From contig CAZOKP010000002.1 in assembly GCA_964580435.1 (NCBI GenBank), positions 2,919-66,918 on the forward strand: a stretch of DNA of 64,000 nt. Reading direction: 5' to 3'. This document shows positions 1,158 to 29,722 of this stretch, piece by piece. Numbering within the stretch: the stretch's first letter is position 1; each line of letters starts with the position of its first letter. The notes under the pieces are model-generated. The model saw only the letters and a program-made list of their open reading frames with translations. It searched no databases and had not been told where the DNA came from. Position numbers and translations under genes: made by a program. This stretch comes from an uncultured Eubacteriales bacterium (GTDB lineage Bacteria > Acidobacteriota > Aminicenantia > Aminicenantales > UBA8522).

Positions 1158-1163
1158 CCCCCC

Positions 1164-2081: not shown

Positions 2082-2122
2082 CGGTCCTCCAAATAAACTG
2101 ATGCTGTTATGGTCATTACAGG

Positions 2123-2812: not shown

Positions 2813-2828
2813 CAGCAAGGGGGCCTTT

Positions 2829-3704: not shown

Positions 3705-3721
3705 GGTCTTCTCCTTTTCCT

Positions 3722-4882
3722 CTACGCCTTCGCCAGGGCGACCACTTTTTCGGCCGCTTCCTTCATCGTCTGAGCGGAAGCGAAGGCCAGGCCCGATTCT
3801 TCCAAGATCTTTTTGCCCAGGTCGACGTTGGTGCCCTCGAGCCGGACGACGATCGGGATCTTGGTCCCGAGCTCTTTGGCCGCTTTGACGATCCCGCCGG
3901 CGATCATGTCGCAGCGGACGATCCCGCCGAAAATATTGATCAGCGCCGCTTTGACATCCTTATCAGCAACAAGGATCTTGAAGGCGTTGGTCACGGCTTC
4001 CTCCGTCACACCGCCGCCGACGTCCAGGAAGTTTGCCGGCATACCGCCGGAATATTTGATGATGTCCATGGTGGCCATGGCCAGTCCGGCGCCATTGACC
4101 ATGCAGCCGACATTCCCGTCGAGCTTGATGTAATTGAGGTTGTACTTGGAGGCTTCGACTTCGAGGGGTTCTTCCTCGTACAGGTCCCTCATGGCCTGGA
4201 TATCGGGATGTCGCGGCACCGCGTTGTCATCAAAATTCATCTTGGCATCGAGGGCGAGGACGTTGCCCTGCTTGGTGACGAGGAGAGGGTTGATCTCAGC
4301 GAGGGAGGCATCGCTGGCCTGGAAGGCCTTGTAGAGGCTGGTGATGAACTTGATCGCCTGCTTGTGGGTTTCGCCGCTCAGTCCGAGCTTGAAGGCGAGT
4401 TTTCTGGCCTGAAAGCTCTGGAATCCCGCGGACGGGTCCACCCATTCCTTGAAGATCAGCTCGGGATGTTCGGCGGCGACCTTCTCGATTTCGACTCCGC
4501 CCTCTGTGGATGCCATCACCACGGGCGACTCGTTGGCTCGGTCGATGACGATCCCGATGTAAAGCTCTTTGGCGATGTCCAGAGCCTCCTCGACGAGCAG
4601 CGTTTTGACTTTTTTCCCCTCGGGTCCGGTCTGATGAGTCACTAAGGTCATTCCGATCATCTGCTGGGACAGCCTTTCCGCCTCGTCGGGATTGGCGGCG
4701 AGCTTGATGCCTCCGCCCTTGCCCCGTCCACCCGCGTGAATCTGAGCCTTAAGGACGACGCGGGTGCCGATCCGCTCGGCGATTTCCCGGACTTTGGCCG
4801 GGGTTTCAGCCACATCGCCCCGGGGAATCTGGACGCCGTACTGGCTGAGGATTTTTTTGGCTTGATATTCGTGGATTTTCAC
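3722..4882 (-). CDS. sucC: Succinyl-CoA synthetase beta subunit (GTG start)
   Basis: [17 protein letters not shown] shows an ATP-grasp N-terminus. Start is GTG with a GGAGGT Shine-Dalgarno 7 nt upstream. Confidence 0.95.
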
Positions 4883-13282: not shown

Positions 13283-14995
13283 TTGAGCTTTGTGAAAAAG
13301 AAGGAGGAGACGGGGTTGGCGAAAAGGAAGCCCAAGGCATCGAGTTTAAGAGCGTCCTATGAGAAGTGGAAGAAAACAAAATACGCCCAAGCAGGGGCGG
13401 ATGCCTGTCTGCCGAAAAAAGCCTTTACCACTATCTCAGGAAGAAGAATCAAGGAACTCTACACGCCCGCCGATATATCTGGTTTCGATTATCTCAGGGA
13501 CCTGAATTATCCCGGTGAGTATCCCTTCACCCGGGGAGTCCATCCGAACATGTACCGGGGCCGTCTCTGGACGATGCGCCAGTTCTCCGGATTCGGGACG
13601 GCCGAGGATACGAATAGACGCTACAAGTATCTTCTTTCCCATGGTCAGACCGGACTCAGCGTTGCCTTCCATCTCCCCACCCTAATGGGAATAGACTCCG
13701 ACAATCCGCTGGCCGAAGGAGAAATCGGCAAGTGCGGGGTGGCCATCGATTCCCTGGCCGATATGGAGATCCTCTTCAAGGGCATCCCGTTGGATAAGAT
13801 CACCACCTCGATGACGATCAATGCGCCGGCGGCCGTGCTCTGGGCTATGTATATTGCCGTCGCCGAGAAGCAGGGCATTTCCCCCACAGTCATCTCGGGG
13901 ACGATTCAAAATGATATCCTCAAGGAATACATTGCCCAAAAGACTTTCATCTTTCCCCCCCGGCCCTCGATGAAACTGATCGTCGACACGTTTGAATACG
14001 GGGCCAAGGAAGTCCCGCGCTGGAACACGATCTCGATCTCAGGATACCATATCCGGGAAGCGGGCGCGACCGCCGTTCAGGAATTGGCGTTCACCCTCAG
14101 GGACGGGATCGAGTATGTGGAGTGGGCGCTCGAGAGAGGCCTCAAACTCGACGATTTCGCGCCCCGCCTCTCCTTCTTCTTCAACTCGCACAATGATTTT
14201 TTTGAGGAGATCGCCAAGTTCAGGGCCGCGAGGCGGATCTGGGCCAGAGTGATGAGAGACCGGTTTGGGTCCAGGAATCCCAGGTCCTGGTGGCTACGGT
14301 TCCACACCCAGACGTCCGGAGTTTCCCTGATGGCCCAGCAGCCTTATAACAACATTGTCCGTGTGGCCATCCAGGCGCTGGCAGCCGTGCTCGGAGGAAC
14401 CCAATCCCTCCACACCAATTCCCTTGATGAAACCTATGCTTTGCCCTCGGAAGAAGCCGTCGCCATCGCCCTGCGAACACAGCAGATTATCGCCCACGAA
14501 AGCGGCGTGCCCAACTCGATCGACCCCCTGGGAGGAGCCTACTTTGTGGAGGCCCTGACCCAGGAAATGGAAAAGGAAGCTGGGGACTACATCAAGAAGA
14601 TCGACGATATGGGAGGAATGGTCAAAGCCATCGAGCTTGGATTCCCGCAAAGAGAGATTGCGGACAGCGCCTATTGGTATCAGAAGGCTGTGGACAAGAA
14701 GGAGAAAATCATCGTGGGGGTGAACGCTTTTGAGATGAAGCACGAGCGGATCCCGCTCTTGTGCATCAATGAAGCCGTCGCCCGCCAGCAGCTCGCTCGG
14801 CTGAGGGACGTCAGAAGGTCGCGCAACCAGGCCAGGGTCAAGAGATCCCTCGGTGAGTTAAAAAAGGCGGCCGTGGAAGGCCTCAATCTCATGCCTTATT
14901 TTTTGAACTGCGTCAAGACGTATGCCACCTTGGAAGAGATCATGGATTCGTTGAAAGAGGTCTTTGGAGATTACCAGGAACCCGTCATGTTTTGA
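13283..14995 (+). CDS. Methylmalonyl-CoA mutase family, catalytic (N-terminal, substrate-binding) subunit
   Basis: [51 protein letters not shown] is diagnostic. Start is non-ATG: TTG at 13283, or alternatively GTG at 13292 or TTG at 13319 after an AAGGAGGAG. Confidence 0.9.
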
Positions 14996-15023
14996 AAGGG
15001 GAGAGCCGTGCCAGGGAGGAAGC

Positions 15024-15450
15024 AATGTCAAGGAAAAAAATAAGAGTTTTGGTGGCCAAGCCCGGATTAGACGGCCATGATCGCGGCGCCAAAGTGGTCT
15101 GCCGGGCGCTGCGGGATGCCGGGATGGAAGTCATCTATACGGGTTTGCGGCGGACTCCCGAGGAGATCGTCAACGCTGCCGTGCAGGAAGACGCGGACCT
15201 CATCGGCCTGAGCATTCTTTCAGGGGCCCATCCCATTCTCTTCCCCAAGATTATCAAGCTCCTCCAGGAGAAAGGGGCCGGGGATATCCCCGTCATCGCC
15301 GGCGGGATCATCCCTGAAAAAGACATCCCTAAGATGAAAAAAGCAGGCATCCGGGAGATCTTCCTGCCCGGGACATCCACTCAGGATATCGTCAAGTGGA
15401 TCAAGGAAAATATCCCCCGGGGCCGAGAAAAAATAAAATTGACCTCTTGA
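15024..15450 (+). CDS. Methylmalonyl-CoA mutase B12-binding subunit (cobalamin-binding domain protein)
   Basis: [18 protein letters not shown] contains the DxHxxG B12-binding motif. The start at MSRKKIRV has a GGGAGG ribosome-binding site. Confidence 0.9.
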
Positions 15451-15487: not shown

Positions 15488-16393
15488 ATGACCAAAAAGC
15501 GGTTTTCTTTAATTATTGTCCCGCACTGTGCCAAGCGGTTCAAAACCATCACCCTGTCCCAACGAACCCTTAAGGCGCTTTTGGCCGTTTCTGTATTTTG
15601 CTTCATCGGCCTGGGGATCATTATTGTTGATTATTTCACGATGAACGTCACCCGGGGGAAATACAAGGAGTTGCTCAAGGAGACCGCTGAACAAAGTCAG
15701 CTCCTGACCGATTACGAAAATTCGGTCAAGAAATTGAGGGAGACGGTCAAGAATTATGAGAGCTATACCAAAAAGCTGAGTGTCATGGCCGGACTCAAGT
15801 CCCCTGAGGTTATGGAAGAAATGGGGATTGGAGGAGGGCCAACAGAAGGAATTGATGGTCAAACCATGCCGGCCGTTCCCCCGGCTGCTCAAGGCGTCAC
15901 GCTGCAGGATGCCAAAGAGCTTGCCCAGAAGGCTGAGGACATCGGGAAAAACCTGAGCGTGTTAGCCAGCTATTTTGAAATGCAGGCCGTTAAACTGGCT
16001 TTTACCCCGACTATCTGGCCCACCATCGGCTGGGTCAGCTCCCCATTCACTTACCGGGACGATCCTTTCACGGGAGAGAAGACTTTCCATTACGGAATAG
16101 ACATCGCCACAAATTTTGGAAACCCAGTTGTTGCTACTGCTGACGGCATCGTCCTTACCATCGGGACAGACAAGATTGCAGGTAAAAACATCGTCCTGAG
16201 CCATGGCAGCGGCGTAACCACCCACTATCTCCATCTCAGCAAGTCCCTGGTCAGGGGAGGGCAGAAGGTCAAAAGGGGAGATGTCATCGGCCTTGTCGGA
16301 AAAACGGGGAAGGCCCTGGGTCCCCATCTCCACTATGAGGTCCGGGTTAATAACCGTCCCAAGAATCCCTACGATTATATCCTCGAAGAATAG
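15488..16393 (+). CDS. M23-family metallopeptidase (murein endopeptidase-like) with N-terminal TM helix and coiled coil
   Basis: HYGIDIA (HxxxD) and HLHYEV (HxH) M23 motifs are present. N-terminal membrane anchor. Confidence 0.85.
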   Translation: MTKKRFSLIIVPHCAKRFKTITLSQRTLKALLAVSVFCFIGLGIIIVDYFTMNVTRGKYKELLKETAEQSQLLTDYENSVKKLRETVKNYESYTKKLSVMAGLKSPEVMEEMGIGGGPTEGIDGQTMPAVPPAAQGVTLQDAKELAQKAEDIGKNLSVLASYFEMQAVKLAFTPTIWPTIGWVSSPFTYRDDPFTGEKTFHYGIDIATNFGNPVVATADGIVLTIGTDKIAGKNIVLSHGSGVTTHYLHLSKSLVRGGQKVKRGDVIGLVGKTGKALGPHLHYEVRVNNRPKNPYDYILEE

Positions 16394-16411: not shown

Positions 16412-17344
16412 TCATTCAAAAAAATCGCCGGGCTTGATTTTCGCCCCGCGCAGGAACTCAGCCGAATCCAGGGCCTTTTTGTTTTCCTGCTGGAGACGTT
16501 CTATGACAAAGACGCCTCCATGTCCGCAGCAAACCGCAATCCCATCTTTTTTTGTCTCGAGGACCTGGCCCGGCAGGCCGCAGAGTCCTGAGTCGGCCAG
16601 GCTCCGGCCGGCATGAATAAGGATACGCTGGCCCCTTAAGAATGTAAACGCTCCGGGCCAAGGTGTCAAAGCCCGGACCATCCTGTCCACCGAGAGAGCA
16701 TCCTTGGACCAGTCCATTCGGCCTTGTTCTTTTTTCAGCCGGGGGGCGTAGGATGCTTGAGCATGATCCTGGGGGATGGGCCGGATGTCCTGGATTCCTG
16801 GGAGGAGATTGAGAAGTCGTGTCGCTCCGATATGAGCAAGCCGGGTTTCCAGCTGCCAGGAGTTCTCCCGCTCGAGGATGCTTGTTTCCTCGCTGGCCAG
16901 GATATCTCCTTCGTCCATTTTTTCATTGAGCTCGAAGATCGTCACTCCCGTTTTTTTCTCGCCACTCAGGATTGCCCACTGGACCGGTGCGGCCCCGCGG
17001 TATTTCGGCAGAAGCGAAAAGTGGACATTTATCGATTTGAACCTGGGCAGATAGATGATCGAGGCCGGGATGATCTGCCCGTACGCCACCACGATGTTGA
17101 TGTCCGGGTCGGACTTTTTAATCGTTTCCAAAACCTTTTCGTCCTGCCTGATCTTAGCCGGCTGAAGGACGGGGATCCCCCGCTTCAGGGCAAATACCTT
17201 AATGGGAGGAGCGGTCGGGGCCTTGCCCCTTCCGGAAGGCTTGTCCGGCTGGGTGATGACAAACTCGATTTTGTGTCCTGCCTCCAGGAGTCTTTCCAAG
17301 AACGGCAGAGCTGCTGCCGGACTTCCGAAAAATATGATCCTCAT
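16412..17344 (-). CDS. fmt: Methionyl-tRNA formyltransferase
   Basis: MRIIFFGSPAAALPFLERLL...VVAYGQIIP is the classic Fmt N-terminus. Overlaps def by 4 nt. Confidence 0.95.
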   Translation of the reverse strand: MRIIFFGSPAAALPFLERLLEAGHKIEFVITQPDKPSGRGKAPTAPPIKVFALKRGIPVLQPAKIRQDEKVLETIKKSDPDINIVVAYGQIIPASIIYLPRFKSINVHFSLLPKYRGAAPVQWAILSGEKKTGVTIFELNEKMDEGDILASEETSILERENSWQLETRLAHIGATRLLNLLPGIQDIRPIPQDHAQASYAPRLKKEQGRMDWSKDALSVDRMVRALTPWPGAFTFLRGQRILIHAGRSLADSGLCGLPGQVLETKKDGIAVCCGHGGVFVIERLQQENKKALDSAEFLRGAKIKPGDFFE

Positions 17345-17856
17345 TCCTTTGCGCCGGTGCCCTGCTCCCTGCTGAGCCTCTTTTTGACGAGAGCCTTTTT
17401 CAGGGGAGACAGGTTTTCTATGAACAACCTTCCATTGATGTGATCAATCTCATGGCAAAAGACACGCGCCAAGATCCCGATGGCTTCGATGATTCTCTCT
17501 TCGCCTCTGAGGCCGATCCCTTTCACGCGGACCCGAACCGGCCTTTTCACTTTCTCTTGAATCCCGGGGACGGAAAGGCAGCCTTCTTCTTGGACAATCT
17601 CTCCCTCGGCCTCGAGGAACTCGGGGTTCGCCAGGACGACCAGCTCCTCGGGATTTTCTCCTATGGAAAGGTCGATCGTTATCAGGCGCTTGCTCACGCT
17701 GACCTGCGGGGCGGCCAGCCCTATGCCGGGAGCGGCGTGCATGGTTAGAACCATATCTTGAGCCAGCTCGAGGATTTCCTTGTCGATCGTCTTAATAGGT
17801 TGGGCAAGCCGCGAGAGGATGGGATTTCCGTACTTAATGATTTCGAGGATGGGCAT
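17341..17856 (-). CDS. def: Peptide deformylase
   Basis: GIGLAAPQ, EGCLSVPG and HEIDHINGRLF motifs are all present. Confidence 0.95.
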   Translation of the reverse strand: MPILEIIKYGNPILSRLAQPIKTIDKEILELAQDMVLTMHAAPGIGLAAPQVSVSKRLITIDLSIGENPEELVVLANPEFLEAEGEIVQEEGCLSVPGIQEKVKRPVRVRVKGIGLRGEERIIEAIGILARVFCHEIDHINGRLFIENLSPLKKALVKKRLSREQGTGAKE

Positions 17857-18047: not shown

Positions 18048-20072
18048 TTAGACAATCGCAGACGGGGGAGCCGGTTCGTCCGCTTTGCCCTTGTTTCTGA
18101 GCGGTATGTGGATGAGATAAACCCCTATCAGGACGAGGACTCCCAAGCCGATATAGTAGCTGGCATTTTTAAAAATTTCGGGGATGTCGAAGGTGAGCAC
18201 ATGTTGGAAAAACAAGAACTTCCAGGCCGCCCGAATCAGGCCTGTCAGGGCCTCCCCGGCGATAAGGCCGGATGCCAGAAGAATTCCGACATTTTCAACC
18301 CGTGCTTTCTGGGCGGGGTTGAGGTTTTGCCTTCCCGCCAGGCGGTCAATGATGCCCTTCATCATGCCGCCGCAGAAGATGGCGAACGTCGTTTCAAGGG
18401 GAAGATACATTCCCACGGCCACGAGCATGGGCGATTTCACCTGGACGAGAATGAAGGCAAAGCCCATGAACATGCCGACGATGACCAGAGGCCAGGCCAT
18501 CTCGCCGCCGACAATTCCTTGGGCGAGAGCGGCCATCAGTCCGGCCTGCGGGGCAGAGAGTTCCCTGCTCCCGAAGGTGAAGGCTCCATGGAGAATCAGC
18601 AAGGGAAAGAAAAGAACGAGGGAAGCCACCAAGATACCGAAGATGTCTCCGACCTGCATCTTCCAGGGGGTTCCGCCAAGGATGTGCCCCACCTTGAGGT
18701 CCTGGAGCATTTCGCCGGCCACGGCCGACGAGACACAAACAACGGCCGCAACTCCCAAAACAGCTGCCACTCCGCTTATGCCTGTGGCCCCGACAAGAAC
18801 CATAAGAAGGGCGGCGATGATGAGCGTGGAAAGAGTAAGGCCCGATATGGGATTATTGGAGGAGCCAATCTGACCGACGAGATTTCCTGAAACAGCGGCA
18901 AAAAAGAAGCCGGCGACCGCCATGACGGCAGCCGCGACAACGGCTGTTCCAAAAGTCCCGGCAAAAATTTTATAAATGAAGATCATCAGGACAAACGTGG
19001 CCACAAGACCCGCCAGAACAAGCCTCATGTTGAGGTCCTGCTCCACTCGGGAGGTGGCCTCAACGTGACCCGCTGCCTTCTTCACGTCTCCGATCGACCT
19101 TTTGATTCCCGCCGCAAGATTCTTTCTCATTCTGAAAAGAGTGTAGCCGGCTCCGACCAGCATCGCGCCTACGGCAATCGGCCGGATGATGAACTTCCAG
19201 ACGTCGAGCATCATGACATCCCAGCCGACCTCGGCCAGGGCCACTGAAGGTCCGTAAAATTTTTCGACCAATTGCGGACCGAGGAAGAACATAAGCAGGG
19301 GAGCGAACAGTCCCCAGGCCAGGACCCCGCCGGCAAAATTGAGTGATGCCAGACGTGGACCGATGATGTAGCCGACGCCGATATAGGCAGGATAAATCCC
19401 CGGGCCGGCGACAGCCACTGTCCCGCCCGCATCGACTTTCGGGGCCGCCTTATCTGTGCCCAGCCTCACGAGGCTGGCGCCGATGTTGCCGACTTTGATG
19501 ATGAAGTCCTTCGTAGCCGCAAAGATTCGTATAACTCCCAGCGCGTAGATCAATGCTCCCATGCCCATCGCTTGAAAAAGGAACTTAGCTCCCTGGCTGC
19601 CTTTCTGGCCCGCCTTATGGATCTCGGAAGCGGCCACAGATTCGGGGAAGGCGAGCTCGGGGTCCGTAACCATGACCCTTCTCAAGAAGGTCACAAAGAG
19701 AATCCCGAGCAGACCGCCCACAAACATCAGCGCCGTCGACTTGAGATAGGCTTCGAGGGAATTAAACTTCGTCCAAGCCCCGGCAATAACAAACGCCGGG
19801 ATGGTAAAGATGGCCCCGGCGGCAACCGATTCTCCGATCGACCCGACCGTCCTGGCCAGGTTTTCCTCCAGAATGGAGCCTCTCAAGATTTTGAGAACGG
19901 CCATCCCGATGACAGCGGCAGGATAGGTGGCGGCGATCGTCATGCCCGCCCGGAGCCCCAGGTAAGCATTGGCGGCGCCAAGAATGACGGTCAAAACAAT
20001 GCCGATGATCAGGGCTTTCAGGGTGAATTCTCTCAGGTTGGTTTTTTCGGGAACATATGGTTGATAGCTCAT
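18048..20072 (-). CDS. OPT-family oligopeptide transporter
   Basis: 674-aa polytopic membrane protein. N-terminus LKALIIGIVLTVILGAANAYLGLRAGMTIAATYPAAVIG is characteristic of the OPT superfamily. Confidence 0.9.
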   Translation of the reverse strand: MSYQPYVPEKTNLREFTLKALIIGIVLTVILGAANAYLGLRAGMTIAATYPAAVIGMAVLKILRGSILEENLARTVGSIGESVAAGAIFTIPAFVIAGAWTKFNSLEAYLKSTALMFVGGLLGILFVTFLRRVMVTDPELAFPESVAASEIHKAGQKGSQGAKFLFQAMGMGALIYALGVIRIFAATKDFIIKVGNIGASLVRLGTDKAAPKVDAGGTVAVAGPGIYPAYIGVGYIIGPRLASLNFAGGVLAWGLFAPLLMFFLGPQLVEKFYGPSVALAEVGWDVMMLDVWKFIIRPIAVGAMLVGAGYTLFRMRKNLAAGIKRSIGDVKKAAGHVEATSRVEQDLNMRLVLAGLVATFVLMIFIYKIFAGTFGTAVVAAAVMAVAGFFFAAVSGNLVGQIGSSNNPISGLTLSTLIIAALLMVLVGATGISGVAAVLGVAAVVCVSSAVAGEMLQDLKVGHILGGTPWKMQVGDIFGILVASLVLFFPLLILHGAFTFGSRELSAPQAGLMAALAQGIVGGEMAWPLVIVGMFMGFAFILVQVKSPMLVAVGMYLPLETTFAIFCGGMMKGIIDRLAGRQNLNPAQKARVENVGILLASGLIAGEALTGLIRAAWKFLFFQHVLTFDIPEIFKNASYYIGLGVLVLIGVYLIHIPLRNKGKADEPAPPSAIV

Positions 20073-20205
20073 CCCTCACTCCTTTAAACGTGCATTGCCT
20101 TAATGTATATTAAAATGTATCTCTCTAAGTCAAGAAATTAGATTGTTTGTTTGCCTTGCAAAGAAGAATGCTCTAGAATAAAATAAGTTAGGTTATAGGA
20201 AAACA

Positions 20206-21237
20206 ATGAGTATGCTCAGCTGGTTCAAGGAAAGGCTCTTTTGTGACCTGGCCATAGACTTGGGAACGGCGAACACGCTCGTCTTCCTCAAAGGGAGGGG
20301 CATCATCGTCCAGGAACCTTCCATTGTCGTCGTCAATAAGACAACCGGGAAAGTCGAAGCCGTCGGGAGTCGGGCCAAGGAAATGCTGGGGAAAACGCCG
20401 GCTTCCGTCTCGGCGATCAAGCCAATGCGCGATGGAGTGATCGCCGACTTCGAGATTGCCGAGAAAATGCTCGACTATTTCATCAAAAAGGCGACCAACA
20501 ATCGAGGCTTTTGGCTGCGGCCGAGGATCGTCATCGGCATTCCCACGGGCATCACCCAGGTCGAGCGGCGGGCCGTGAAAGACGTGGCGATGAGGGCCAA
20601 AGCTTCGGAGGTCTATCTCGTGGAGCAGCCAATAACGGCAGCGGTGGGAGCGGACCTCCCGATTTCTGACCCGACAGGGAACATGATCGTCGACGTCGGC
20701 GGCGGCACCACCGATATCGCCATCATATCTCTCGACGGGATCGTCTTCAATCATTCCATCAGGATCGCCGGAAACGAGATGGACGAGGAGATCATCCAAT
20801 ACCTGAAGAAAAAGTACAACCTGCTGATCGGCGAGAAGAGCGCCGAATTTGTCAAGATCCAGATCGGGTCGGCCTATCCTTTGGATGAGCCCTTGACCAT
20901 GGAGATCAAAGGACGTGATCTTCGCGAGGGGATACCCAAGACCATCGTTATTGACGATCAGGAAATACGAGAGGCCCTCGAGGACGTCGTCGCCGCCATC
21001 GTCAATGCCGTCAGGATTGCCTTGGAGAAGACCCCTCCCGAGCTTTCTGCCGATATCATCGACCGCGGCATTGTCTTGACCGGCGGCGGGGCCCTTCTCA
21101 AGAACCTTGACAAACGCTTGCGCGAGGAAACTCAGTTGCCTGTTTTCGTCACCGATGACCCTCTGACCAGCGTCGTGCTCGGAGCGGGCAGGCTCTTGGA
21201 TGACCTCGATCTCCTAAAAAAGATTGCTCTCGATTAG
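20206..21237 (+). CDS. mreB: Rod shape-determining protein MreB
   Basis: DLAIDLGTANTLVF actin-fold phosphate-1 motif is present. Confidence 0.95.
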   Translation: MSMLSWFKERLFCDLAIDLGTANTLVFLKGRGIIVQEPSIVVVNKTTGKVEAVGSRAKEMLGKTPASVSAIKPMRDGVIADFEIAEKMLDYFIKKATNNRGFWLRPRIVIGIPTGITQVERRAVKDVAMRAKASEVYLVEQPITAAVGADLPISDPTGNMIVDVGGGTTDIAIISLDGIVFNHSIRIAGNEMDEEIIQYLKKKYNLLIGEKSAEFVKIQIGSAYPLDEPLTMEIKGRDLREGIPKTIVIDDQEIREALEDVVAAIVNAVRIALEKTPPELSADIIDRGIVLTGGGALLKNLDKRLREETQLPVFVTDDPLTSVVLGAGRLLDDLDLLKKIALD

Positions 21238-21263
21238 AGAGGCGCGGGTTGAACTGAATCTTC

Positions 21264-22100
21264 ATGCCTTTTTCCCTGAAAGAGAGAAGAAAATTCGCCC
21301 TCTTTGCCGGGTTGATTTTTTTCCATCTGACCTTGATCTCTCTCCAGGTCCCCAAAGGAAACCAGCCGACATATTTTGAGCGCGCTTTTTTTGCCGTGTT
21401 TACCCCTGTCCAGCACGGGGTGGTCTCCTTCTTTCAGGGTGTGGGCAGGTTCTGGAAGGACTATTTTTATTTCCGCCACGTCCAGCGGCAGAATCAGGAA
21501 ATGCGGGATGAAATTTTTCTGCTTCGACAGGAGAACCAGGCCTTCCGAAATATGTTGCTGAAGTTCAAGAGCGAGAAAGAGATCCAGGAACGGCTGGCGA
21601 CGATTTCTCGCTCCATCCTTGTCTGTTCTGTGATCGGGTTTAATTCGAGCGAGATCTATAAATCTGTCGTTTTGAATAGAGGCTCGCTCGATGGCCTGAA
21701 GAAGGATATGGTTGTCCTGGATAAGAAAGGCCGTCTTGTCGGACGCGTGATTGACCCGGTCTCTTTAAAGCAGGCGAGGGTCCAGCTCATTACCGATAAG
21801 GAAAGCGGAGTCGGGGTCCTCTCCGAACGCCAGAGGGTTGTCGGCGTCCTGACGGGCTACGCCGAAGGAAAATGTTTGATGAAGTATGTCCTCAGGACCA
21901 ACAAAGGCATCGAGGAGGGTGAGGAGGTCCGCACCTCAGGGTTTGAGGGCATCTACCCTGCAGAAATTCCGGTGGGGAAGATCATCTCCGTTACCGAGGA
22001 TGCCACCCTGTTCAAAAAAATCATCGTGGAACCGTATTTCGATTTTTCTGACCTGGATGAGGTGGCCGTTTTCACCATCGACCTGAGAGAATTATCGTAA
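21264..22100 (+). CDS. mreC: Rod shape-determining protein MreC
   Basis: N-terminal TM helix, coiled coil and C-terminal beta domain. Position immediately after mreB. Confidence 0.85.
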   Translation: MPFSLKERRKFALFAGLIFFHLTLISLQVPKGNQPTYFERAFFAVFTPVQHGVVSFFQGVGRFWKDYFYFRHVQRQNQEMRDEIFLLRQENQAFRNMLLKFKSEKEIQERLATISRSILVCSVIGFNSSEIYKSVVLNRGSLDGLKKDMVVLDKKGRLVGRVIDPVSLKQARVQLITDKESGVGVLSERQRVVGVLTGYAEGKCLMKYVLRTNKGIEEGEEVRTSGFEGIYPAEIPVGKIISVTEDATLFKKIIVEPYFDFSDLDEVAVFTIDLRELS

Positions 22101-22112
22101 AAGACAGGACGC

Positions 22113-22592
22113 ATGAAAGGTCTTTTTGAAGCCGTTGTGGGGATCATTCTTGCCGTTATCCTCGAGACCGTTCTCGGCAAGATCTCGGCGCCGCTCCTCT
22201 TTTTGTTCAATGCCTTTTCTTGGGTCGTTCTTTATTTCAGCCTGACCAAACACGAAGTCTTTGGGGCAGTCATGGGAACGGTCTGCGGGCTTCTCCAAGA
22301 TTCTTTTTCCCTGGGGATATTCGGCGTGGGCGGATTGACCAAGACCCTGCTGGGTTTCACGGCAGGGTTCGTTTCTCGAAAAATCAATGTGATCCCCGTG
22401 ACCCGCAATTTTGTTTTTCTTCTGATTGTTTCCTCCATCGAACTCGCGTTATGGAAATTCTTGGTCTTTTTTCTTTTCGGGGAGCGCTTTGCGCTGGGAG
22501 GCGGGCTCGCTTTGCTCCAGCCTCTAGTCACGGCGTTTTTCGTCACTCTCGTGTTCCAGATCGTGCGGAGGAAGAGGGGAGAGAGTTTATAA
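22113..22592 (+). CDS. mreD: Rod shape-determining protein MreD
   Basis: 159-aa polytopic membrane protein directly after mreC. Confidence 0.75.
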   Translation: MKGLFEAVVGIILAVILETVLGKISAPLLFLFNAFSWVVLYFSLTKHEVFGAVMGTVCGLLQDSFSLGIFGVGGLTKTLLGFTAGFVSRKINVIPVTRNFVFLLIVSSIELALWKFLVFFLFGERFALGGGLALLQPLVTAFFVTLVFQIVRRKRGESL

Positions 22593-22595
22593 GCC

Positions 22596-24398
22596 GTGAA
22601 AATAGAAAAAAATAGGTTCTACGAAGACCTCTCCCTCATCGTGCTGAGGGCGAGGCAGGTCTACTTTGCCGTGGGCGGTCTCTTTCTCCTCCTGCTTTTC
22701 TTTTTCTGGAAAGTCCAGGTCCTTGATTTCAAGAAATATTGGTCTCTTTCGGAAGCGAACCGCACCCGCGAGAGCGTCATCTCCGCTCCCCGCGGCCTGA
22801 TTACTGACCGGAATGACGTCATCCTCGCCGATAACGCCGGCTCTTTCAAAGCGTCATTTATCCGGGAGAACTGCCAGGATTTCGGGCGCTCCCTAGAAAA
22901 CATCAGCCGTCTTTTGCAGATCGAGGAAACCGACCTGCAAGCGAGGATCGCCAAGTACGCGTCTTTTCCTCTTTTCAAGCCGATTATTGTCAAGGACAAC
23001 TTGGACCTGCGGGAAGTCTCGCGGATCGAATCTAGGAAGCTGGAGTTCCCCGAGCTGGTGGTAGAAACCGACCCCAGACGATTCTATCCGTTTTCCACCG
23101 TGGCGGCTCATGTGATCGGCTATATGCAGGAGCTGACTCCCGAGGAGATGAAGTCGGATTTTTACAAAGGGAGAAATCTTGGTGATCTCGTGGGCCAAAC
23201 GGGTGTGGAGAAAGAATATGAATCTGTGCTGATTGGAGCCGACGGCAGATTGACCGAAGTCGTTGACAGTGTCGGACGAAGCCGCGGCGAAGTGGCGAGA
23301 GTCGATCCTGCACCGGGACACAACATCCAGCTCACGCTCGATTTCGACCTCCAGCGGAAAGCGACGGAATTGCTGGAGGGAAGGGAAGGGGCCATTGTCA
23401 TTCTGGACCCGCGCACCGGCGAGGTCTTGGCTCTGGCCAGCTTTCCGACGTATGATCCCAATAAGTTCATTGCCCGCTTTACTCCCAAGGAATGGATGGA
23501 CCTCATCAACCGGCCCGACGATCCTTTGGAGAATCGCGCCATTCGCGGCCTCTACGCGCCCGGGTCTGTTTTTAAGCCGACGATCGCCTTGGGTGCCCTG
23601 AGCAGCGGGCAGATTACCGAGCAGACGACTTTCTTCTGCGGGGGCACCACTCATTTTTACGGGCGCCCTTTTTCGTGCTGGTTTGCCGGAGGACACGGGG
23701 TCCAGAATTTGACCCAGGCCATCCAGCACTCCTGCAATATTTATTTTTACAACGCCGGCCGCAGATTGGGAGTCGAGAGGATCGCTGAATACGCCAAAAC
23801 CCTTGGCTTGGGCAGTCTCACGGGGATTGATCTGCCGGGTGAAAAAGAAGGCTTTGTCCCGACAGAAGAATGGAGTCGAAACGTCAGAAAAACAGACTGG
23901 TATCCGGGAGAGACGATTTCCCTATCCATCGGCCAGGGACCATTGCTTGTCACCCCGCTCCAAGTAGCCTTCCTTACTGCGATCTTGGCCAACCGCGGAA
24001 GAAAAGTCGTCCCCCATCTACTCAAGTTTCCGTCCCAGGCTCTGAAACAGGCGGAGGAGATATCGGATTCCCCCGCCAGAATAATCAGTGTCGGGACCTT
24101 CGAGAAAGTCATCAAAGGTATGTGGAAGTCTGTGAATGAGGGAGGCACGGGCCATTTCGCTATGGTTGAAGAATTTGATGTCTGCGGAAAGACAGGCTCG
24201 ACCCAACTCATCAGTAGAGAAAGAGCGGCGAAGCTGGGCAAGGAAATCAAACCCCATTCCTGGTTCACTGGTTTTGCTCCGCGGGACAATCCTCAGGTTG
24301 TGGTCACAGTCTTAGTCGAGTACGGGGGAATGGGGGGTACCACAGCGGCTCCACTCGCCAAGGAATTATTCAACCTGTACAAGAACAAATATGATTGA
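22596..24398 (+). CDS. mrdA: Penicillin-binding protein 2 (peptidoglycan D,D-transpeptidase), GTG start
   Basis: SVFKP (SxxK), HSCN (SxN) and KTGST (KTG) motifs are present. N-terminal TM helix. Confidence 0.9.
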   Translation: MKIEKNRFYEDLSLIVLRARQVYFAVGGLFLLLLFFFWKVQVLDFKKYWSLSEANRTRESVISAPRGLITDRNDVILADNAGSFKASFIRENCQDFGRSLENISRLLQIEETDLQARIAKYASFPLFKPIIVKDNLDLREVSRIESRKLEFPELVVETDPRRFYPFSTVAAHVIGYMQELTPEEMKSDFYKGRNLGDLVGQTGVEKEYESVLIGADGRLTEVVDSVGRSRGEVARVDPAPGHNIQLTLDFDLQRKATELLEGREGAIVILDPRTGEVLALASFPTYDPNKFIARFTPKEWMDLINRPDDPLENRAIRGLYAPGSVFKPTIALGALSSGQITEQTTFFCGGTTHFYGRPFSCWFAGGHGVQNLTQAIQHSCNIYFYNAGRRLGVERIAEYAKTLGLGSLTGIDLPGEKEGFVPTEEWSRNVRKTDWYPGETISLSIGQGPLLVTPLQVAFLTAILANRGRKVVPHLLKFPSQALKQAEEISDSPARIISVGTFEKVIKGMWKSVNEGGTGHFAMVEEFDVCGKTGSTQLISRERAAKLGKEIKPHSWFTGFAPRDNPQVVVTVLVEYGGMGGTTAAPLAKELFNLYKNKYD

Positions 24399-25479
24399 CC
24401 GGCGGCACATCGAGAACATTGACTGGTTCCTGATTATCCTTCTTGTCTTGATCTCTCTTGTCGGGGTCCTGGTCGTTTACAGTTCCTCTCATTACCTGCC
24501 GGGGAAGTATTATCTCAAACAGATGCTCTTTATCGGCGTTGGCCTGCTGCTTCTTTTCCTTTTTCTCGCCGTGGATTACAAGGTTTTAACGACCTATTCC
24601 TTTTATTTTTACGGCCTGATCGTGCTGGTCCTCGCGGGAATGCTGTTGTTCAGTCAACTCACGGCGAAGGAGAGCTGGATCAAGCTCAAGTATTTTCAGG
24701 TTCAGCCTTCCGAGCTGGCCAAGATCGCCCTCATTCTTGTCCTGGCCCAGATGTTTTCCGAATACAAGAGGAATTACGTCTCCCTGGGCGCCGTCCTGGC
24801 TAGCGGCGGACTCGCAGCCGCTTTTTTCATCTTGGTCGCTTTGCAGCCGGACCTGGGGACGGCGGTGAGCTTTCTCCCGCTGCTCTTGGGCGCCTTGATA
24901 CTTGCCGGATTAAAACGGAGAGCCCTGGTATTGATTCTTGTTTTATCGGTCTTGCTCGGCGTTGCCGGCTGGGATTTCTTCCTCAAGGATTATCAGAAAA
25001 AGAGGTTGACAACGGTTGTTTTTCCTGGGAAGGATCCCCGGGGATCCGGCTACCAAATCCTCCAGTCGAAAATCGCCATTGGCTCGGGAGGTTTTTCCGG
25101 AAAGGGGTTCAAAAAGGGGACGCAGAGCCAGCTGAGATTTCTGCCCGCCCGGCATACAGATTTTATCCTCTCCGTGGTCGGGGAAGAATTTGGGTTTCTC
25201 GGCGTGGCGGGGGTCTTGATGCTGTATTTTTTGTTTATTGCCAGGCTTTTCCATTCCGCCGCACAATCCAGGGACAGAACGGGCGTTTATATCATCTTCA
25301 TGGTCAGTTTGATGTTTAGTTTTCAGACTCTCGTGAATGTCGCCATGGTCATCGGGCTCTTCCCGATCGTCGGGATCCCCCTCCCCCTGCTCAGCTACGG
25401 AGGTTCCTCCCTTCTGACGAGCTTCCTGGCGGTCAGCCTTGTTTTGAATGTCAAAATGAGAAGGTTCGTCAATATTTAG
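24391..25479 (+). CDS. rodA: Rod shape-determining protein RodA (SEDS family peptidoglycan polymerase)
   Basis: FtsW/RodA/SpoVE family membrane protein. Overlaps mrdA by 8 nt. Confidence 0.9.
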   Translation: MIDRRHIENIDWFLIILLVLISLVGVLVVYSSSHYLPGKYYLKQMLFIGVGLLLLFLFLAVDYKVLTTYSFYFYGLIVLVLAGMLLFSQLTAKESWIKLKYFQVQPSELAKIALILVLAQMFSEYKRNYVSLGAVLASGGLAAAFFILVALQPDLGTAVSFLPLLLGALILAGLKRRALVLILVLSVLLGVAGWDFFLKDYQKKRLTTVVFPGKDPRGSGYQILQSKIAIGSGGFSGKGFKKGTQSQLRFLPARHTDFILSVVGEEFGFLGVAGVLMLYFLFIARLFHSAAQSRDRTGVYIIFMVSLMFSFQTLVNVAMVIGLFPIVGIPLPLLSYGGSSLLTSFLAVSLVLNVKMRRFVNI

Positions 25480-25482
25480 GGA

Positions 25483-28053
25483 ATGGGTCACGAACAAGAC
25501 CTCAAGGATATTCTCAAGCACGTCGAGAAGCCTGGCCGGTATATCGGCGGCGAGTGGAACGAAACAAGGAAGGATCCGGGGACCGTCGCGGCCAAGATCG
25601 CTCTTGTCTTTCCTGACGTCTATGAGATCGGCATGTCCTATTTGGGGCAGAAGATTCTCTATGACGTTCTCAACTCGCGCTCTTCGTTCTTAGCCGAGAG
25701 GGTTTTTACTCCCTGGCCCGACCTGGAGGAAAAACTCCGCTCTCGAAAGATGCCGCTCGTCTCCTTGGAGAACAAGATTCCGCTGCGCGACTTTGATATC
25801 CTCGGGTTTTCTCTGCTCTACGAGCTCAACTATTCTAACATTTTGACGATCTTGGACCTCGGGGGCATCCCTTTCTTAGCGGAAGAACGCGAGGATGACG
25901 GCCCTTTGATTATCGCCGGGGGACCGGCCGCATTCAATCCCGAGCCGGTGTCGGATATCTTTGACGCTTTTTTCCTGGGAGACGGGGAAGAGGGATTTCC
26001 CGAAATCGCCGAAAAATATGTTTTCTTGCGAAAAAGTGGAGCCAGAAAAGACGAGATCTTGAACAACCTGGCCAAGATCCGTGGCGTCTATGTTCCCCGT
26101 TTGTACGGCTGTTTTGAGCCTCCTTGTTCTTCGCTCCTGGCGCGGTGGCCCAAAAACAGAGCACCTGACCGGATCAAAAAAAGGGTCATTGCTCCGCTGG
26201 GAAAAGTTCCCTTCCCGGAGAAGATCGTGGTCCCGGACGTTCAAGTCGTTTTTGACCGTGTGGCCGTTGAGGCGAGCAGAGGATGTCCGCAGAGATGCCG
26301 ATTCTGCCAGGCCACCCAGGTCTATTTTCCTTTCAGGATCCGCAGCCCTTCTTCTCTGCTAGAAAGCGTCTGCGGCAGCCTGCGTTCCACGGGCTATGAG
26401 GATGTTTCTCTGTCCGCTCTCTCGGTCAGCGATTACCCTTACCTGGAAGGAACTGTCGAGGCTCTTATGGAAAGATTGGCCGGGCGGAGAATCGCTCTCT
26501 CCTTATCCTCGCTCCGGCCCCAGGGGTTGACTTCCGCCCTGGCAGATAACATCCTCAGAGTGAGAAAGACCGGGTTCACCCTGGTGCCCGAAGCCGGGAC
26601 AGATAGGCTCCGTCGGGTCATTAACAAAAACCTTAAAAACCAGGACATCCTCGATGCGGCGGCCCATGCGTTCAACCGCGGCTGGCAGCTTCTCAAGCTC
26701 TATTTCATGGTCGGCCTTCCTACCGAGACGCAGGAAGATTTAGAAGGAATCGTCCGGTTGTGCGGAGAGATCATCCGGATGGGGAAGACCATGATGAAGT
26801 CGCCTCCTCGAATAAACCTCAGCCTTTCTTCTTTTATTCCCAAGCCGCACACACCCTTCCAGTGGCTGGCCATGGAGACTGGGGAGAGCCTCGAGGAGAA
26901 ACAAAAATTCGTCCGCTCCCGGCTCCGTCAGTTCCGGTCAATCAAGATAAAGGACCATCCGACTCATACCTCCATCCTGGAGGGAGTTTTTTCCAGAGGA
27001 GACAGGAGGCTTGGACCCGCGCTTGTCCAGGCCTGGAAAAAGGGCGCCCGGTTCGACAGCTGGAAAGACTGGTTTTCCTTTTCTCCTTGGGAGGAATCGT
27101 TCAGGGCAGAGAATTTGGACTACAGAATCTATCTTGGCCCTCTTGACACGGCCGCCCCCCTTCCCTGGGACCACATCGATACGGGGATCAAAAAGAGCTT
27201 CCTTCTGGCCGAGCTCGAAAAAGCTTTGGCGGCAGAGACAACACCTTCCTGCCTTGAAGCCAGTTGCAGCCAATGCCAGGCCTGCGATGCGGAGCTCCGC
27301 CCCCCCAAAAAGTTTCCCCGGGAGCGCGAGTCAAGAGCCCGAAAATTTTCTTTTTTTGGAGAGCGCGCCGATCGAGTCCTGCGCTATGAGCTGACTTATT
27401 CCAAGTCCGGCTGGGCCCGGTACTTGTCCCATCTCGACCTCGCCAACCGCCTCCAGAGGACTCTACGCCGGGCAGGAATCGAGCTCGCTTTTTCTCAAGG
27501 TTTTCACCCCAAAATGCTCGTCTCCTATGGACCGGCGCTTCCGCTGGGCACGGAAGGAAAGGCCGAGTGCTTCGAGTTCAAGTCGGCGTATCATTTTGAT
27601 GAAATGGGATTCATCCGGCGCCTCAATAGATATGCCGGGCAGGGGATCAGGTTCTCCTTGCTGAGAAAGATGCCGGAGTCTGCTCGGACCTTGAATGAAA
27701 GGATCAAGGGGATGATCTACTCCGTGGACCTCGGGGATCCCGACATAGGGAAAGCGCTCGAAACCAGAAAGCGAGAGAAGGACAGAGTGCGAGTCGGCGA
27801 TGCTGAGTTCGTCAGGGAAGAAATGGCCGAGCTTTGGACGCAGACTCCCGAAGCCCTGAAGAGCTTTTGGGTGGACAAAAAGAAGCAGCGGATCTTCCTG
27901 TGCCTGCCTTATATATCTTACCGCGGTCTCCGCTCCCAGGATATCGTCGCAAAAGTTTTTGGCTTGTCCTCTCCCGCATTCTATCTGAAGCGGGAACGGT
28001 TTGTTTTCGAGGGAGAGGAAAAAATTGACTTTAAGCAATCTTCCAGTATATAA
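25483..28053 (+). CDS. Fusion protein: B12-binding-domain radical SAM protein (TIGR03960-like) fused to a radical-SAM-associated DUF2344 domain (TIGR03936-like)
   Basis: PGRYIGGEWN N-terminus and CPQRCRFC (CxxxCxxC) cluster motif are present. The C-terminal ~250 aa (YELTYSKSGWARYLSHLDLANRLQRTLRRAGIELAFSQGFHPK) is DUF2344-like. One uninterrupted 856-codon ORF. Confidence 0.85.
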   Translation: MGHEQDLKDILKHVEKPGRYIGGEWNETRKDPGTVAAKIALVFPDVYEIGMSYLGQKILYDVLNSRSSFLAERVFTPWPDLEEKLRSRKMPLVSLENKIPLRDFDILGFSLLYELNYSNILTILDLGGIPFLAEEREDDGPLIIAGGPAAFNPEPVSDIFDAFFLGDGEEGFPEIAEKYVFLRKSGARKDEILNNLAKIRGVYVPRLYGCFEPPCSSLLARWPKNRAPDRIKKRVIAPLGKVPFPEKIVVPDVQVVFDRVAVEASRGCPQRCRFCQATQVYFPFRIRSPSSLLESVCGSLRSTGYEDVSLSALSVSDYPYLEGTVEALMERLAGRRIALSLSSLRPQGLTSALADNILRVRKTGFTLVPEAGTDRLRRVINKNLKNQDILDAAAHAFNRGWQLLKLYFMVGLPTETQEDLEGIVRLCGEIIRMGKTMMKSPPRINLSLSSFIPKPHTPFQWLAMETGESLEEKQKFVRSRLRQFRSIKIKDHPTHTSILEGVFSRGDRRLGPALVQAWKKGARFDSWKDWFSFSPWEESFRAENLDYRIYLGPLDTAAPLPWDHIDTGIKKSFLLAELEKALAAETTPSCLEASCSQCQACDAELRPPKKFPRERESRARKFSFFGERADRVLRYELTYSKSGWARYLSHLDLANRLQRTLRRAGIELAFSQGFHPKMLVSYGPALPLGTEGKAECFEFKSAYHFDEMGFIRRLNRYAGQGIRFSLLRKMPESARTLNERIKGMIYSVDLGDPDIGKALETRKREKDRVRVGDAEFVREEMAELWTQTPEALKSFWVDKKKQRIFLCLPYISYRGLRSQDIVAKVFGLSSPAFYLKRERFVFEGEEKIDFKQSSSI

Positions 28054-28081
28054 GGGAAAGAAATTAAAGGAGGAGGATACC

Positions 28082-29236
28082 GTGATCGATTTCAGCTTGA
28101 GTGAGGAGCAGCTGGCCCTTCAAGAAATGGCCCGGGAGTTCGCCCAGAAGGAAATGAAGCCCAATGCGGCCAAGTACGACAAAGGAGGGGAATTTCCTGA
28201 AGAGGTCATGAAGAAGGCTTTTGAAGCGGGATTTATCACCTGCAATATTCCCCAGGAATATGAAGGGGGAGGACTGAAGGAGCTTGAGATTGCCATCATC
28301 TCCGAGGAACTGGCCGCCGGCTGCGCGGGAATGTTCACGACCATCATGGCCAGCTCGCTCGCCTTCACGCCCATCATCCTATTCGGCACCGATGAGCAGA
28401 AAAAGCAATTCCTGACGCCGTTCACCAAAAGGATGTCGTTTTCCTCTTTTTGCCTGACGGAAAGAGAAGCGGGCTCGGACGCCTCATCGCTCAAAACCAC
28501 GGCTAGGAAGGTCGGCTCGGAATACGTCATCAACGGTTCCAAGTGTTTCATCACCAACGGCGGGATTGCCAGCCTCTACGTTGTTTTCGCCAACTCCGCC
28601 CCTGAAAGAGGCCCGCGTGGCGTCAGTGCCTTCCTGGTGCCCAGGGAAACTCCGGGCATCACTGTAGGTAAAGAGGAAGACAAAATGGGGCATCGGGCTT
28701 CTAATACCACGGAGCTCTTCTTCGAGGACGTCAAAATTCCTGAGGCCAATCTTCTGGCGAAAGAAGGGCTGGGTTTTCTCGTCGCCATGAGAACCCTGGA
28801 CAAGACACGGGCTTCGGTCGGTGCCGCTGGTGTCGGCGTGGCCCGGACAGCTCTCGAATACGCTATCGAATATGCCAAGACGAGAGTCCAGTTCGGCAAA
28901 CCCATCGCCCTTTTTCAGAATACAGCCTTCAAGATCGCTCAGATGGCCATGGAGGTCAATGCCGCGCGCCATCTCGTTTGGCATTCAGCCTGGCTGATGG
29001 ATCAGGGCAAGCCGTGTGGAAAAGAGTCCGCTATGGCCAAATGCTTTGGCTCGGATGTCGCCATGCGCACGACCGTCGAGGCGGTGCAGCTTTTCGGCGG
29101 CTATGGCTATATGAAGGATTATCCTGTCGAGAAGCTGATGCGTGATGCCAAGCTGCTGCAGATCTATGAAGGGACCAATGAGATTCAGCGTTTGGTGATT
29201 TCTCGCGAGGTCATCGGCCCGATCAAAGAGAAATAA
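28082..29236 (+). CDS. Acyl-CoA dehydrogenase (short/branched-chain type)
   Basis: ACAD N-terminus (DFSLSEEQ), middle and C-terminal (QIYEGTNEIQR) signatures are present. Start is GTG, preceded by AAAGGAGGAGG. Confidence 0.9.
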   Translation: MIDFSLSEEQLALQEMAREFAQKEMKPNAAKYDKGGEFPEEVMKKAFEAGFITCNIPQEYEGGGLKELEIAIISEELAAGCAGMFTTIMASSLAFTPIILFGTDEQKKQFLTPFTKRMSFSSFCLTEREAGSDASSLKTTARKVGSEYVINGSKCFITNGGIASLYVVFANSAPERGPRGVSAFLVPRETPGITVGKEEDKMGHRASNTTELFFEDVKIPEANLLAKEGLGFLVAMRTLDKTRASVGAAGVGVARTALEYAIEYAKTRVQFGKPIALFQNTAFKIAQMAMEVNAARHLVWHSAWLMDQGKPCGKESAMAKCFGSDVAMRTTVEAVQLFGGYGYMKDYPVEKLMRDAKLLQIYEGTNEIQRLVISREVIGPIKEK

Positions 29237-29245
29237 AAAGCGCGG

Positions 29246-29722
29246 TCAGATTTTGCCCTGAATGATCTTCAACAGGTCCTCTTCCACAGAGGTCTGGGGC
29301 GTTTCGATGATGCGGCCGGCTTCCTGGCCCCGGATGGTTACGATAAAAGTCGGTATCCTCTGAATGCCTTTTCCCTGGATGTATTTGGCCCGGTCTTCCT
29401 TTTTTTGAGGAAGCCCGACATAGGTTGGCCGGATCAGCGGATTCTGGACCATGTCCATGATCTTGAAATACGCGCTCACGTTCTGCTTGCTATCAGGGCA
29501 CCACGTCCCGAGGAAGACCTCGATTAGGATTTCTTCGTTGACGGCCTGCAGCCTGCTGATGATTTCAAGGTTAGGGGAATAAGACTCGACCACAGTCTTC
29601 CAGTCGGGGAGATTCTGAAGAATTTCATCCTGGGTGAGCTCACCCAGAAGTTCGACTTGACCGGAGAGAAGTGCAGCCAGAAGGGCTATGGCAAAGGCTG
29701 AGAAAACGAATTTTCTGGGCAT
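29246..29722 (-). CDS. Secreted thioredoxin-fold protein (WCPDS active-site-like motif)
   Basis: Signal peptide MPRKFVFSAFAIALLAALLSG, then FLGTWCPDSKQ. Confidence 0.7.
   Translation of the reverse strand: MPRKFVFSAFAIALLAALLSGQVELLGELTQDEILQNLPDWKTVVESYSPNLEIISRLQAVNEEILIEVFLGTWCPDSKQNVSAYFKIMDMVQNPLIRPTYVGLPQKKEDRAKYIQGKGIQRIPTFIVTIRGQEAGRIIETPQTSVEEDLLKIIQGKI

Follow-up and report, generated by a model that had tools for sequence, protein, structure and literature searches.

Proteins in which the radical S-adenosylmethionine (SAM) family TIGR03960 ('rSAM_fuse_unch') is joined to TIGR03936/DUF2344 ('radical SAM-associated protein') are already present in databases, as is the pairing of the two families, and DUF2344 is already classed with the pseudouridine-synthase domain by Pfam (PMC7955657). 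Such proteins carry the JGI name 'radical SAM family uncharacterized protein/radical SAM-linked protein'. Here we describe one of them in a window of 64,000 nucleotides from an uncultured Eubacteriales bacterium (GTDB class Aminicenantia; assembly GCA_964580435.1, contig CAZOKP010000002.1, positions 2,919 to 66,918 of the forward strand), which is the whole stretch of DNA that was analysed and to which all positions refer. The gene, 25483–28053 on the plus strand including its stop codon, encodes 856 residues and lies directly behind the genes of the cell-elongation machinery, or elongasome (mreB, mreC, mreD, mrdA and rodA). Our favoured reading, whose chances we see as evenly balanced, is that the protein is an RNA-directed radical-SAM enzyme which the Aminicenantes lineage has placed in its elongasome operon. 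Literature searches on DUF2344, TIGR03960 and TIGR03936, and on radical SAM proteins in connection with rodA, mreB, RNase G, rplU or obg, found no characterised member, and the only structures returned by a PDB sequence search were remote radical-SAM cores, none of them from the family, in line with the statement of the initial annotation of this DNA that no substrate is known for the family. The radical-SAM protein mentioned in a paper on essential genes of C. difficile is a different one.

Among the closest described enzymes are the class B radical-SAM methylases and the methylthiotransferases, which have a two-domain arrangement of a Rossmann fold plus a barrel that is predicted for the 856-residue protein as well. 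Methylthiotransferases bind an auxiliary cluster in their N-terminal domain through three cysteines. Where MiaB, RimO and MtaB have a TRAM domain, the protein described here has a pseudouridine-synthase-like domain instead, and none of the class B methylases MgmA, TsrM, TokK and CysS has a domain of that kind. For the gene order, the nearest described system is that of E. coli K-12, in which mreB-mreC-mreD-yhdE-rng has been described as one mre operon (PMC4319933) and a TIGR03960/TIGR03936 gene is absent at that locus.

By its sequence, the open reading frame (ORF) belongs, intact and fused, to the widespread TIGR03960/TIGR03936 radical-SAM family. Its 856 codons form a single frame without an internal stop, and a database protein (P0001) is 100% identical to it. 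Homologues align over 98–100% of its length, which gives no hint of a frameshift, and the full-length ones are 55–87% identical. Both family models match above their curated cut-offs: TIGR03960 with 667.3 bits (cut-off 462.3) over residues 8–601, equivalent to model positions 1–598 of 605, and TIGR03936 with 120.7 bits (cut-off 71.9) over residues 634–825 (27382–27957, plus strand). Pfam divides the ORF into Radical_SAM_N2 (residues 55–205), Radical_SAM (PF04055; residues 263–426, 63.5 bits against a threshold of 29.5) and DUF2344 (PF10105; residues 634–763, 105.6 bits against 23.8). The fusion boundary is a linker of 32 residues (602–633), the length of which ranges from 17 to 128 residues in 149 diverse relatives. 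The initial annotation had described one uninterrupted frame, a fusion of these two families and a boundary near residue 600, and our model alignment agrees with it on each; the two motifs it quoted, PGRYIGGEWN (residues 17–26) and CPQRCRFC (residues 268–275, the latter within GCPQRCRFC at 267–275), were found as well.

The fusion is real, but it is no oddity, since the fused form is the norm among the top 270 homologues, nearly all of which have it. Both Pfam domains are present, within ~850 residues, in each of the 120 nearest homologues, 148 of the 150 best representatives at 50% clustering are 780–1000 residues long, and the architecture is the same in hundreds of database proteins, with no structural difference from the window ORF. 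The representative search returned 3,421 clusters at 50% identity (E < 1e-30), with named members from Aminicenantes, Bacillota, Chloroflexi, Deltaproteobacteria, Myxococcota, Armatimonadota and Zixibacteria. The two-gene versions said to exist in other genomes do so: in a metagenome sample of 71 loci, 42 are split and 29 fused, and split pairs that we read directly (L089–L092) consist of ~618 residues followed by 213–240. The pairing, supposedly obligatory, has exceptions. TIGR03960-type genes of 610–683 codons were observed in L114, L123, L126, L151, L158, L163 and L164, with no DUF2344 found in the flank by tblastn or by hidden Markov model searches; rodA is directly upstream in L114 and L164, while a gyrA-like gene on the opposite strand lies downstream in L123 and L126.

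The C-terminal domain has, in its structural model, a TruA-type pseudouridine-synthase fold. The model, which covers residues 615–856 and was built on a 50-sequence alignment, has a predicted local distance difference test score (pLDDT) of 91. Foldseek matched it to 1dj0 (E 3e-7, probability 1.00), and the top 26 matches are all of the TruA/Pus1/Pus3/Pus10 type. Non-catalytic TruA-like assembly factors on mitoribosomal small subunits are also found among the matches, and the closest functional analogy for DUF2344 lies in such TruA-like proteins, which are catalytically inactive and sit on the rRNA of the small subunit (6sga_FC, 9hny_FB). The link between DUF2344 and the pseudouridine synthases comes only from this fold comparison and the Pfam clan assignment: sequence identity to TruA, Pus1 and Pus3 is 10–16%, and a search of 29 diverse members with the Pfam pseudouridine-synthase models, run to E values of 10, gave no match. 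With a pI of 9.64 the domain is basic; the N-terminal domain (residues 1–230) is acidic, with a pI of 5.08. Its conserved motifs are RxR..K, SHL[DE], RRA and G[FY][HNS]P..LP[VL]G..E, and its conserved residues are mostly arginine, lysine and histidine together with one acidic position (R659, R662, R663, K641, H650 and E695).

Pseudouridine synthases depend on an absolutely conserved catalytic aspartate (PMC4075521), which DUF2344 appears to lack. In place of the GRTD catalytic loop between the second and third beta strands, the family has [PA]L[PAS][VL]G, with no aspartate. The hhalign alignment with E. coli TruA, at a probability of only 5%, puts 'RTD60AGVH' on 'ALPLGTE' with D60 opposite P687, a placement consistent with how the secondary-structure elements follow one another in the DUF2344 model. 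Across 149 sequences, the P687 column holds proline in 93, alanine in 21, serine in 21 and glycine in 6, with eight others not itemised, and there is no acidic residue among the four commonest. A different view of the same domain would have it remain a catalytic isomerase that works through non-canonical residues, for instance H650, D/E652 or E695, making a pseudouridine that then undergoes radical methylation or another radical step. The TruA fold itself speaks for this, as does the conservation of H650 (137/149), D/E652 (144/149), R663 (137/149) and E695, which is kept in 141 of 149 sequences and replaced by aspartate in 6 more, so that 147 are acidic here. Set against it are the 141 of 149 sequences with proline, alanine, serine or glycine where the aspartate is required (PMC4075521) and the missing matches to any Pfam pseudouridine-synthase model, and we judge an active isomerase improbable.

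The N-terminal half combines a predicted Rossmann-like domain of the cobalamin-binding type (residues 55–205; 25645–26097, plus strand) with a radical-SAM core (residues 263–426; 26269–26760, plus strand). The CX3CX2C motif of the radical SAM superfamily lies within the PF04055 core, and its cysteines C268, C272 and C275 (26284–26307) are kept in 149, 149 and 148 of the 149 diverse sequences, respectively. The Pfam B12-binding match, at 20.6 bits, is below the threshold of 32.1. Among structural neighbours of the N-terminal model, MgmA is the best, followed by RimO (14.4), CysS (13.2), MiaB (13.2), TsrM (12.7) and TokK (11.4). No cysteine in residues 1–260 is conserved in at least 95% of the 149 sequences, which makes an auxiliary cluster of the methylthiotransferase type unlikely there. 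We rejected a methylthiotransferase identity (MiaB, RimO or MtaB) for the protein, which is without conserved cysteines of this kind in its N-terminal domain, has no TRAM match and scores 32.7 bits with TIGR01579 against a required 357. A second cysteine motif, CX4CX2CX2C (27250–27285, plus strand), was observed at the end of the TIGR03960 region. Its cysteines C590, C595, C598 and C601 are kept in 141, 143, 143 and 128 of the 149 sequences and are invariant within A1; the motif is found across phyla, and no library model that we used treats it as a separate feature. It could be a candidate site for an auxiliary iron–sulfur cluster or for zinc.

Adjacency to the elongasome genes had been taken in the initial annotation to argue for a role in cell-wall elongation or envelope biogenesis, in which case the target of the enzyme would be a precursor of peptidoglycan, a lipid precursor or a protein of the elongasome. 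The spacing was given correctly as a start four nucleotides after the rodA stop: the TAG codon at 25477–25479 is followed by 'gga' and then by the ATG at 25483, and the 3 nt between the genes leave no room for a terminator, a point in favour of the wall role. A genome scan with one genome per species gave 80 loci (L001–L080), nearly all from Aminicenantes-type metagenome-assembled genomes, at 50–77% identity, which places the window in an Aminicenantes-like bacterium (Acidobacteriota). All 70 Aminicenantes loci with enough flank have rodA immediately ahead of the gene in the same orientation. The acyl-CoA dehydrogenase gene is as constant a neighbour, being downstream on the same strand in 68 of the 70, and synteny confined to one class cannot discriminate between these two partners. 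The cluster is also not rigid, as insertions are tolerated. A gene for a transporter of the MFS type has been inserted between rodA and the radical-SAM gene in L056 (8631–9854), L067, L069 and L076, and an opposite-strand gene for a Ser/Thr kinase with TPR repeats separates the radical-SAM gene from the dehydrogenase gene in L063 (12584–15733) and L062. In L056, an apparent in-frame N-terminal extension of 440 residues on the radical-SAM ORF has no Pfam match and was discarded; the true insert there is the transporter gene, in another frame. With tblastn, neither the 64-kb window nor the 10 kb around the gene in any of the 80 Aminicenantes loci gave an RNase E/G homologue, and the gene therefore sits directly between rodA and the dehydrogenase gene.

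The constancy of the dehydrogenase gene raises the question of whether the enzyme acts on a small molecule, cofactor or lipid with the dehydrogenase as its partner. Its gene starts 28 nt after the radical-SAM stop codon with a strong ribosome-binding site (GGAGG), and it is retained in L142 as well as in the 68 Aminicenantes loci. In the other surveyed loci it is not downstream, L142 itself having an Aminicenantes-type gene order, and in L096 a homologue is ~5.5 kb upstream instead. The fold and charge of DUF2344 also point to nucleic acid, and we hold such a partnership to be very improbable.

As a test of generality, the Aminicenantes-only genome scan gave way to representatives clustered at 50% identity, to look-ups of contigs and to a metagenome query with the family consensus as lead, meant to give taxonomically mixed hits, which yielded 80 loci (57 clusters at 70% identity). 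The 12 distant loci that were looked up comprise fused representatives at 40–45% identity and four split forms. Nine of these 12 non-Aminicenantes loci have RNase_E_G as the following gene in the same orientation, at gaps of 0–587 nt, while only 2 (L081 and L083) have rodA immediately upstream. In the metagenome loci, RNase G is next downstream in 23 of the 50 that have enough flank, or 19 of 44 when they are clustered at 70% identity, whereas rodA is immediately upstream in 3 of 59 (L114, L142 and L164) and further upstream in 5 of 59. Adjacency to rodA is therefore not conserved across distant lineages, at 2/12 and 3/59 against 70/70 in Aminicenantes, and the tight link to rodA is lineage-specific. 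What is particular to the window is the position of the gene between rodA and the acyl-CoA dehydrogenase gene, compared with its position before RNase G elsewhere in the family.

The family is nonetheless not placed at random relative to cell-shape loci, although its tight partner is RNase G. Of the 28 metagenome loci whose flank extends to 6 kb or more, 7 have a gene of the mre, min, penicillin-binding protein (PBP) or rodA type upstream in the same orientation. Three loci of the Firmicutes type have the order mreCD-PBP-minCDE-(rodA)-(mgsA)-M23-M50-radical SAM-DUF2344-RNase G. The non-random linkage to mre and rod genes that the initial annotation implied thus stands as an observation, but it is explained by an old linkage of the cell-shape cluster to rng, to which the proximity of the radical-SAM gene can be attributed. 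The E. coli mre operon shares with the window, L081 and L083 a pattern in which shape genes are followed by RNA or nucleotide housekeeping genes in one unit. In L081, L083 and the window, the radical-SAM gene takes the position that follows the shape genes and precedes that of rng, the window itself being without rng. In one Anaerolineales metagenome-assembled genome (L090), we observed a split pair (1001–4148) behind ndk, followed by an ORF of 766 residues without a Pfam match; obg and mreB are nearby on the opposite strand, and tblastn found no RNase E/G homologue in the locus.

A wall role could draw on all of these upstream genes, namely rodA in 70/70 Aminicenantes loci and in L081, L083, L114, L142 and L164, and the mre, min, PBP or rodA genes in the 7 of 28 metagenome loci and in the Firmicutes-type loci. 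The counts outside Aminicenantes run the other way, however, at 2/12 and 3/59 for rodA against 9/12 and 23/50 for RNase E/G. In the Firmicutes-type loci, the M23 and M50 genes come between rodA and the radical-SAM gene while RNase G is contiguous with it, and the link of mre to rng exists in E. coli without any radical-SAM gene. Within Aminicenantes, the dehydrogenase gene is as conserved a neighbour as rodA, and a transporter gene splits rodA from the radical-SAM gene in some genomes. Searches of the protein against family models matched cytoplasmic enzyme domains alone, with none associated with the envelope, and the fold of the C-terminal domain is that of a tRNA enzyme. We consider a direct role in wall or envelope chemistry quite unlikely. 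The description in the initial annotation was therefore correct, while its step from adjacency to function is weakly supported, with the fold and the cross-phylum neighbourhood pointing elsewhere.

Beyond RNase G, the downstream genes are L21-Prp-L27-Obg in L089 and L091 and L19, a signal peptidase and a GTPase in L092. The enzyme might instead modify a protein, for instance RNase G, Obg or a ribosomal protein like L21 or L27, with DUF2344 as a docking scaffold, comparable to RimO acting on S12 or MgmA on methyl-coenzyme M reductase. We regard a protein substrate as unlikely, though somewhat less so than a wall role or an active isomerase.

The favoured reading of an RNA-directed enzyme would bring the domain and neighbourhood data together as follows. 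DUF2344 would be an RNA-binding, base-presenting module whose isomerase chemistry has been lost. It may bind a structured RNA (tRNA, rRNA or a substrate of RNase G) and present one of its nucleotides to the radical-SAM active site, where a 5'-deoxyadenosyl radical would start the modification, possibly a cobalamin-dependent methylation and perhaps with the involvement of the second metal site. The architecture would then parallel that of MiaB and RimO, as a Rossmann domain, a barrel and a substrate-recognition domain, with the pseudouridine-synthase fold in the place of TRAM. The modified RNA would be connected with RNase G and ribosome maturation. The usual partner gene, RNase E/G immediately downstream, forms with rplU-rpmA-obg in Firmicutes-type loci a block for RNA and ribosome maturation that is classically found behind the mre/min/rodA cluster. 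In its fullest form, the proposal is that the TIGR03960/TIGR03936 proteins form a class of RNA-modifying radical-SAM enzymes that is very large and has gone unrecognised, with a cobalamin-type core and a dead TruA-like RNA-recognition domain, which puts a not yet assigned modification on rRNA, tRNA or an RNase G substrate in ribosome and RNA maturation and has been wired into the elongasome operon in Aminicenantes. We advance this fuller version tentatively, as it is more probably wrong than right.

Several points weigh against the favoured reading. An RNA substrate is deduced only from fold, charge and neighbourhood. MgmA, the best structural neighbour, and RimO act on proteins and not on RNA. 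In the N-terminal model, the radical-SAM core is poorly predicted, with a pLDDT below 50 over residues 239–363, and the placement of the catalytic aspartate depends on the 5%-probability alignment. About half of the metagenome loci lack an adjacent rng, and since no RNase E/G gene is near the radical-SAM gene in Aminicenantes, coupling to RNase G is not obligatory.

The layout of the window locus bears on how the gene is expressed. From mreB to the acyl-CoA dehydrogenase gene, seven close-packed ORFs on the plus strand span 20206–29236, with gaps of 26, 12, 3, −8, 3 and 28 nt. The first gene of the putative operon is mreB (20206–21237; 343 residues; NF010539 498.9 bits, PF06723 471 bits), followed by mreC (21264–22100; 278 residues; TIGR00219 97.4 bits with a cut-off of 92.75, PF04085 129 bits). 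The ORF at 22113–22592 (159 residues) is called mreD mainly by its position, which is kept across the Aminicenantes loci, as its TIGR03426 score of 29.6 bits is under the cut-off of 34.85. Next come mrdA, which encodes the PBP2 transpeptidase (22596–24398; 600 residues; TIGR03423 618.6 bits with a cut-off of 455; PBP_dimer and Transpeptidase domains), and rodA (24391–25479; 362 residues; TIGR02210 360.9 bits with a cut-off of 336.7), which overlaps mrdA by 8 nt. With mreD resting mainly on position, the NCBIfam and Pfam matches agree with the mreBCD-mrdA-rodA assignment made earlier. The radical-SAM gene is followed by the acyl-CoA dehydrogenase gene (28082–29236; 384 residues; matches to PF00441, PF02771 and PF02770), whose best NCBIfam matches, acryloyl-CoA reductase and cyclohexane-carbonyl-CoA dehydrogenase, are under their cut-offs.

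An OPT transporter gene (18048–20072, minus strand) is the divergent neighbour upstream of mreB, and promoter-like hexamers, which are consensus matches only, occur at 20083–20184 within the 133-nt divergent spacer. At the other end, the next gene after the dehydrogenase gene (29246–29722) is convergent. A terminator scan of the window found none between rodA and the radical-SAM gene or between the latter and the dehydrogenase gene; the terminator-like matches are all intragenic, and their number is near chance (29 found against 19.9 ± 5.1 expected). The radical-SAM gene thus has the geometry of an elongasome operon member, on the same strand with tiny gaps and no terminator. Because the intergenic gaps are too short for a terminator, co-transcription from mreB through the radical-SAM gene is likely, and the apparent co-transcription with the elongasome genes put forward earlier fits the five gaps up to this gene. 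The acyl-CoA dehydrogenase gene is probably the last of the unit.

Elsewhere in the window, the stretch at 13283–15450 (plus strand) encodes the large chain of methylmalonyl-CoA mutase and, separately, a B12-binding subunit, which indicates that the organism uses cobalamin; this is compatible with a B12-dependent radical-SAM enzyme and is no proof of one. An M23 peptidase gene (15488–16393, plus strand) adjoins a minus-strand fmt-def pair (16412–17344 and 17341–17856), and M23 and M50 peptidase genes are also the direct upstream neighbours of the radical-SAM gene in the Firmicutes-type loci. An Rfam scan of the whole 64-kb window for riboswitches and other RNA elements found no family at gathering score.

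Judged from gene order and spacing, the radical-SAM gene is probably expressed with the elongasome genes, which ties it to growth but not necessarily to wall chemistry. The link to rodA should accordingly not serve to annotate the gene as a cell-wall factor. For a very large family, these results offer a concrete lead: the substrate may be RNA, with a pseudouridine-synthase-like module to recognise it and RNase G as a partner. If an RNA-modifying class does sit in the elongasome operon, expression of the enzyme in Aminicenantes would follow cell elongation.

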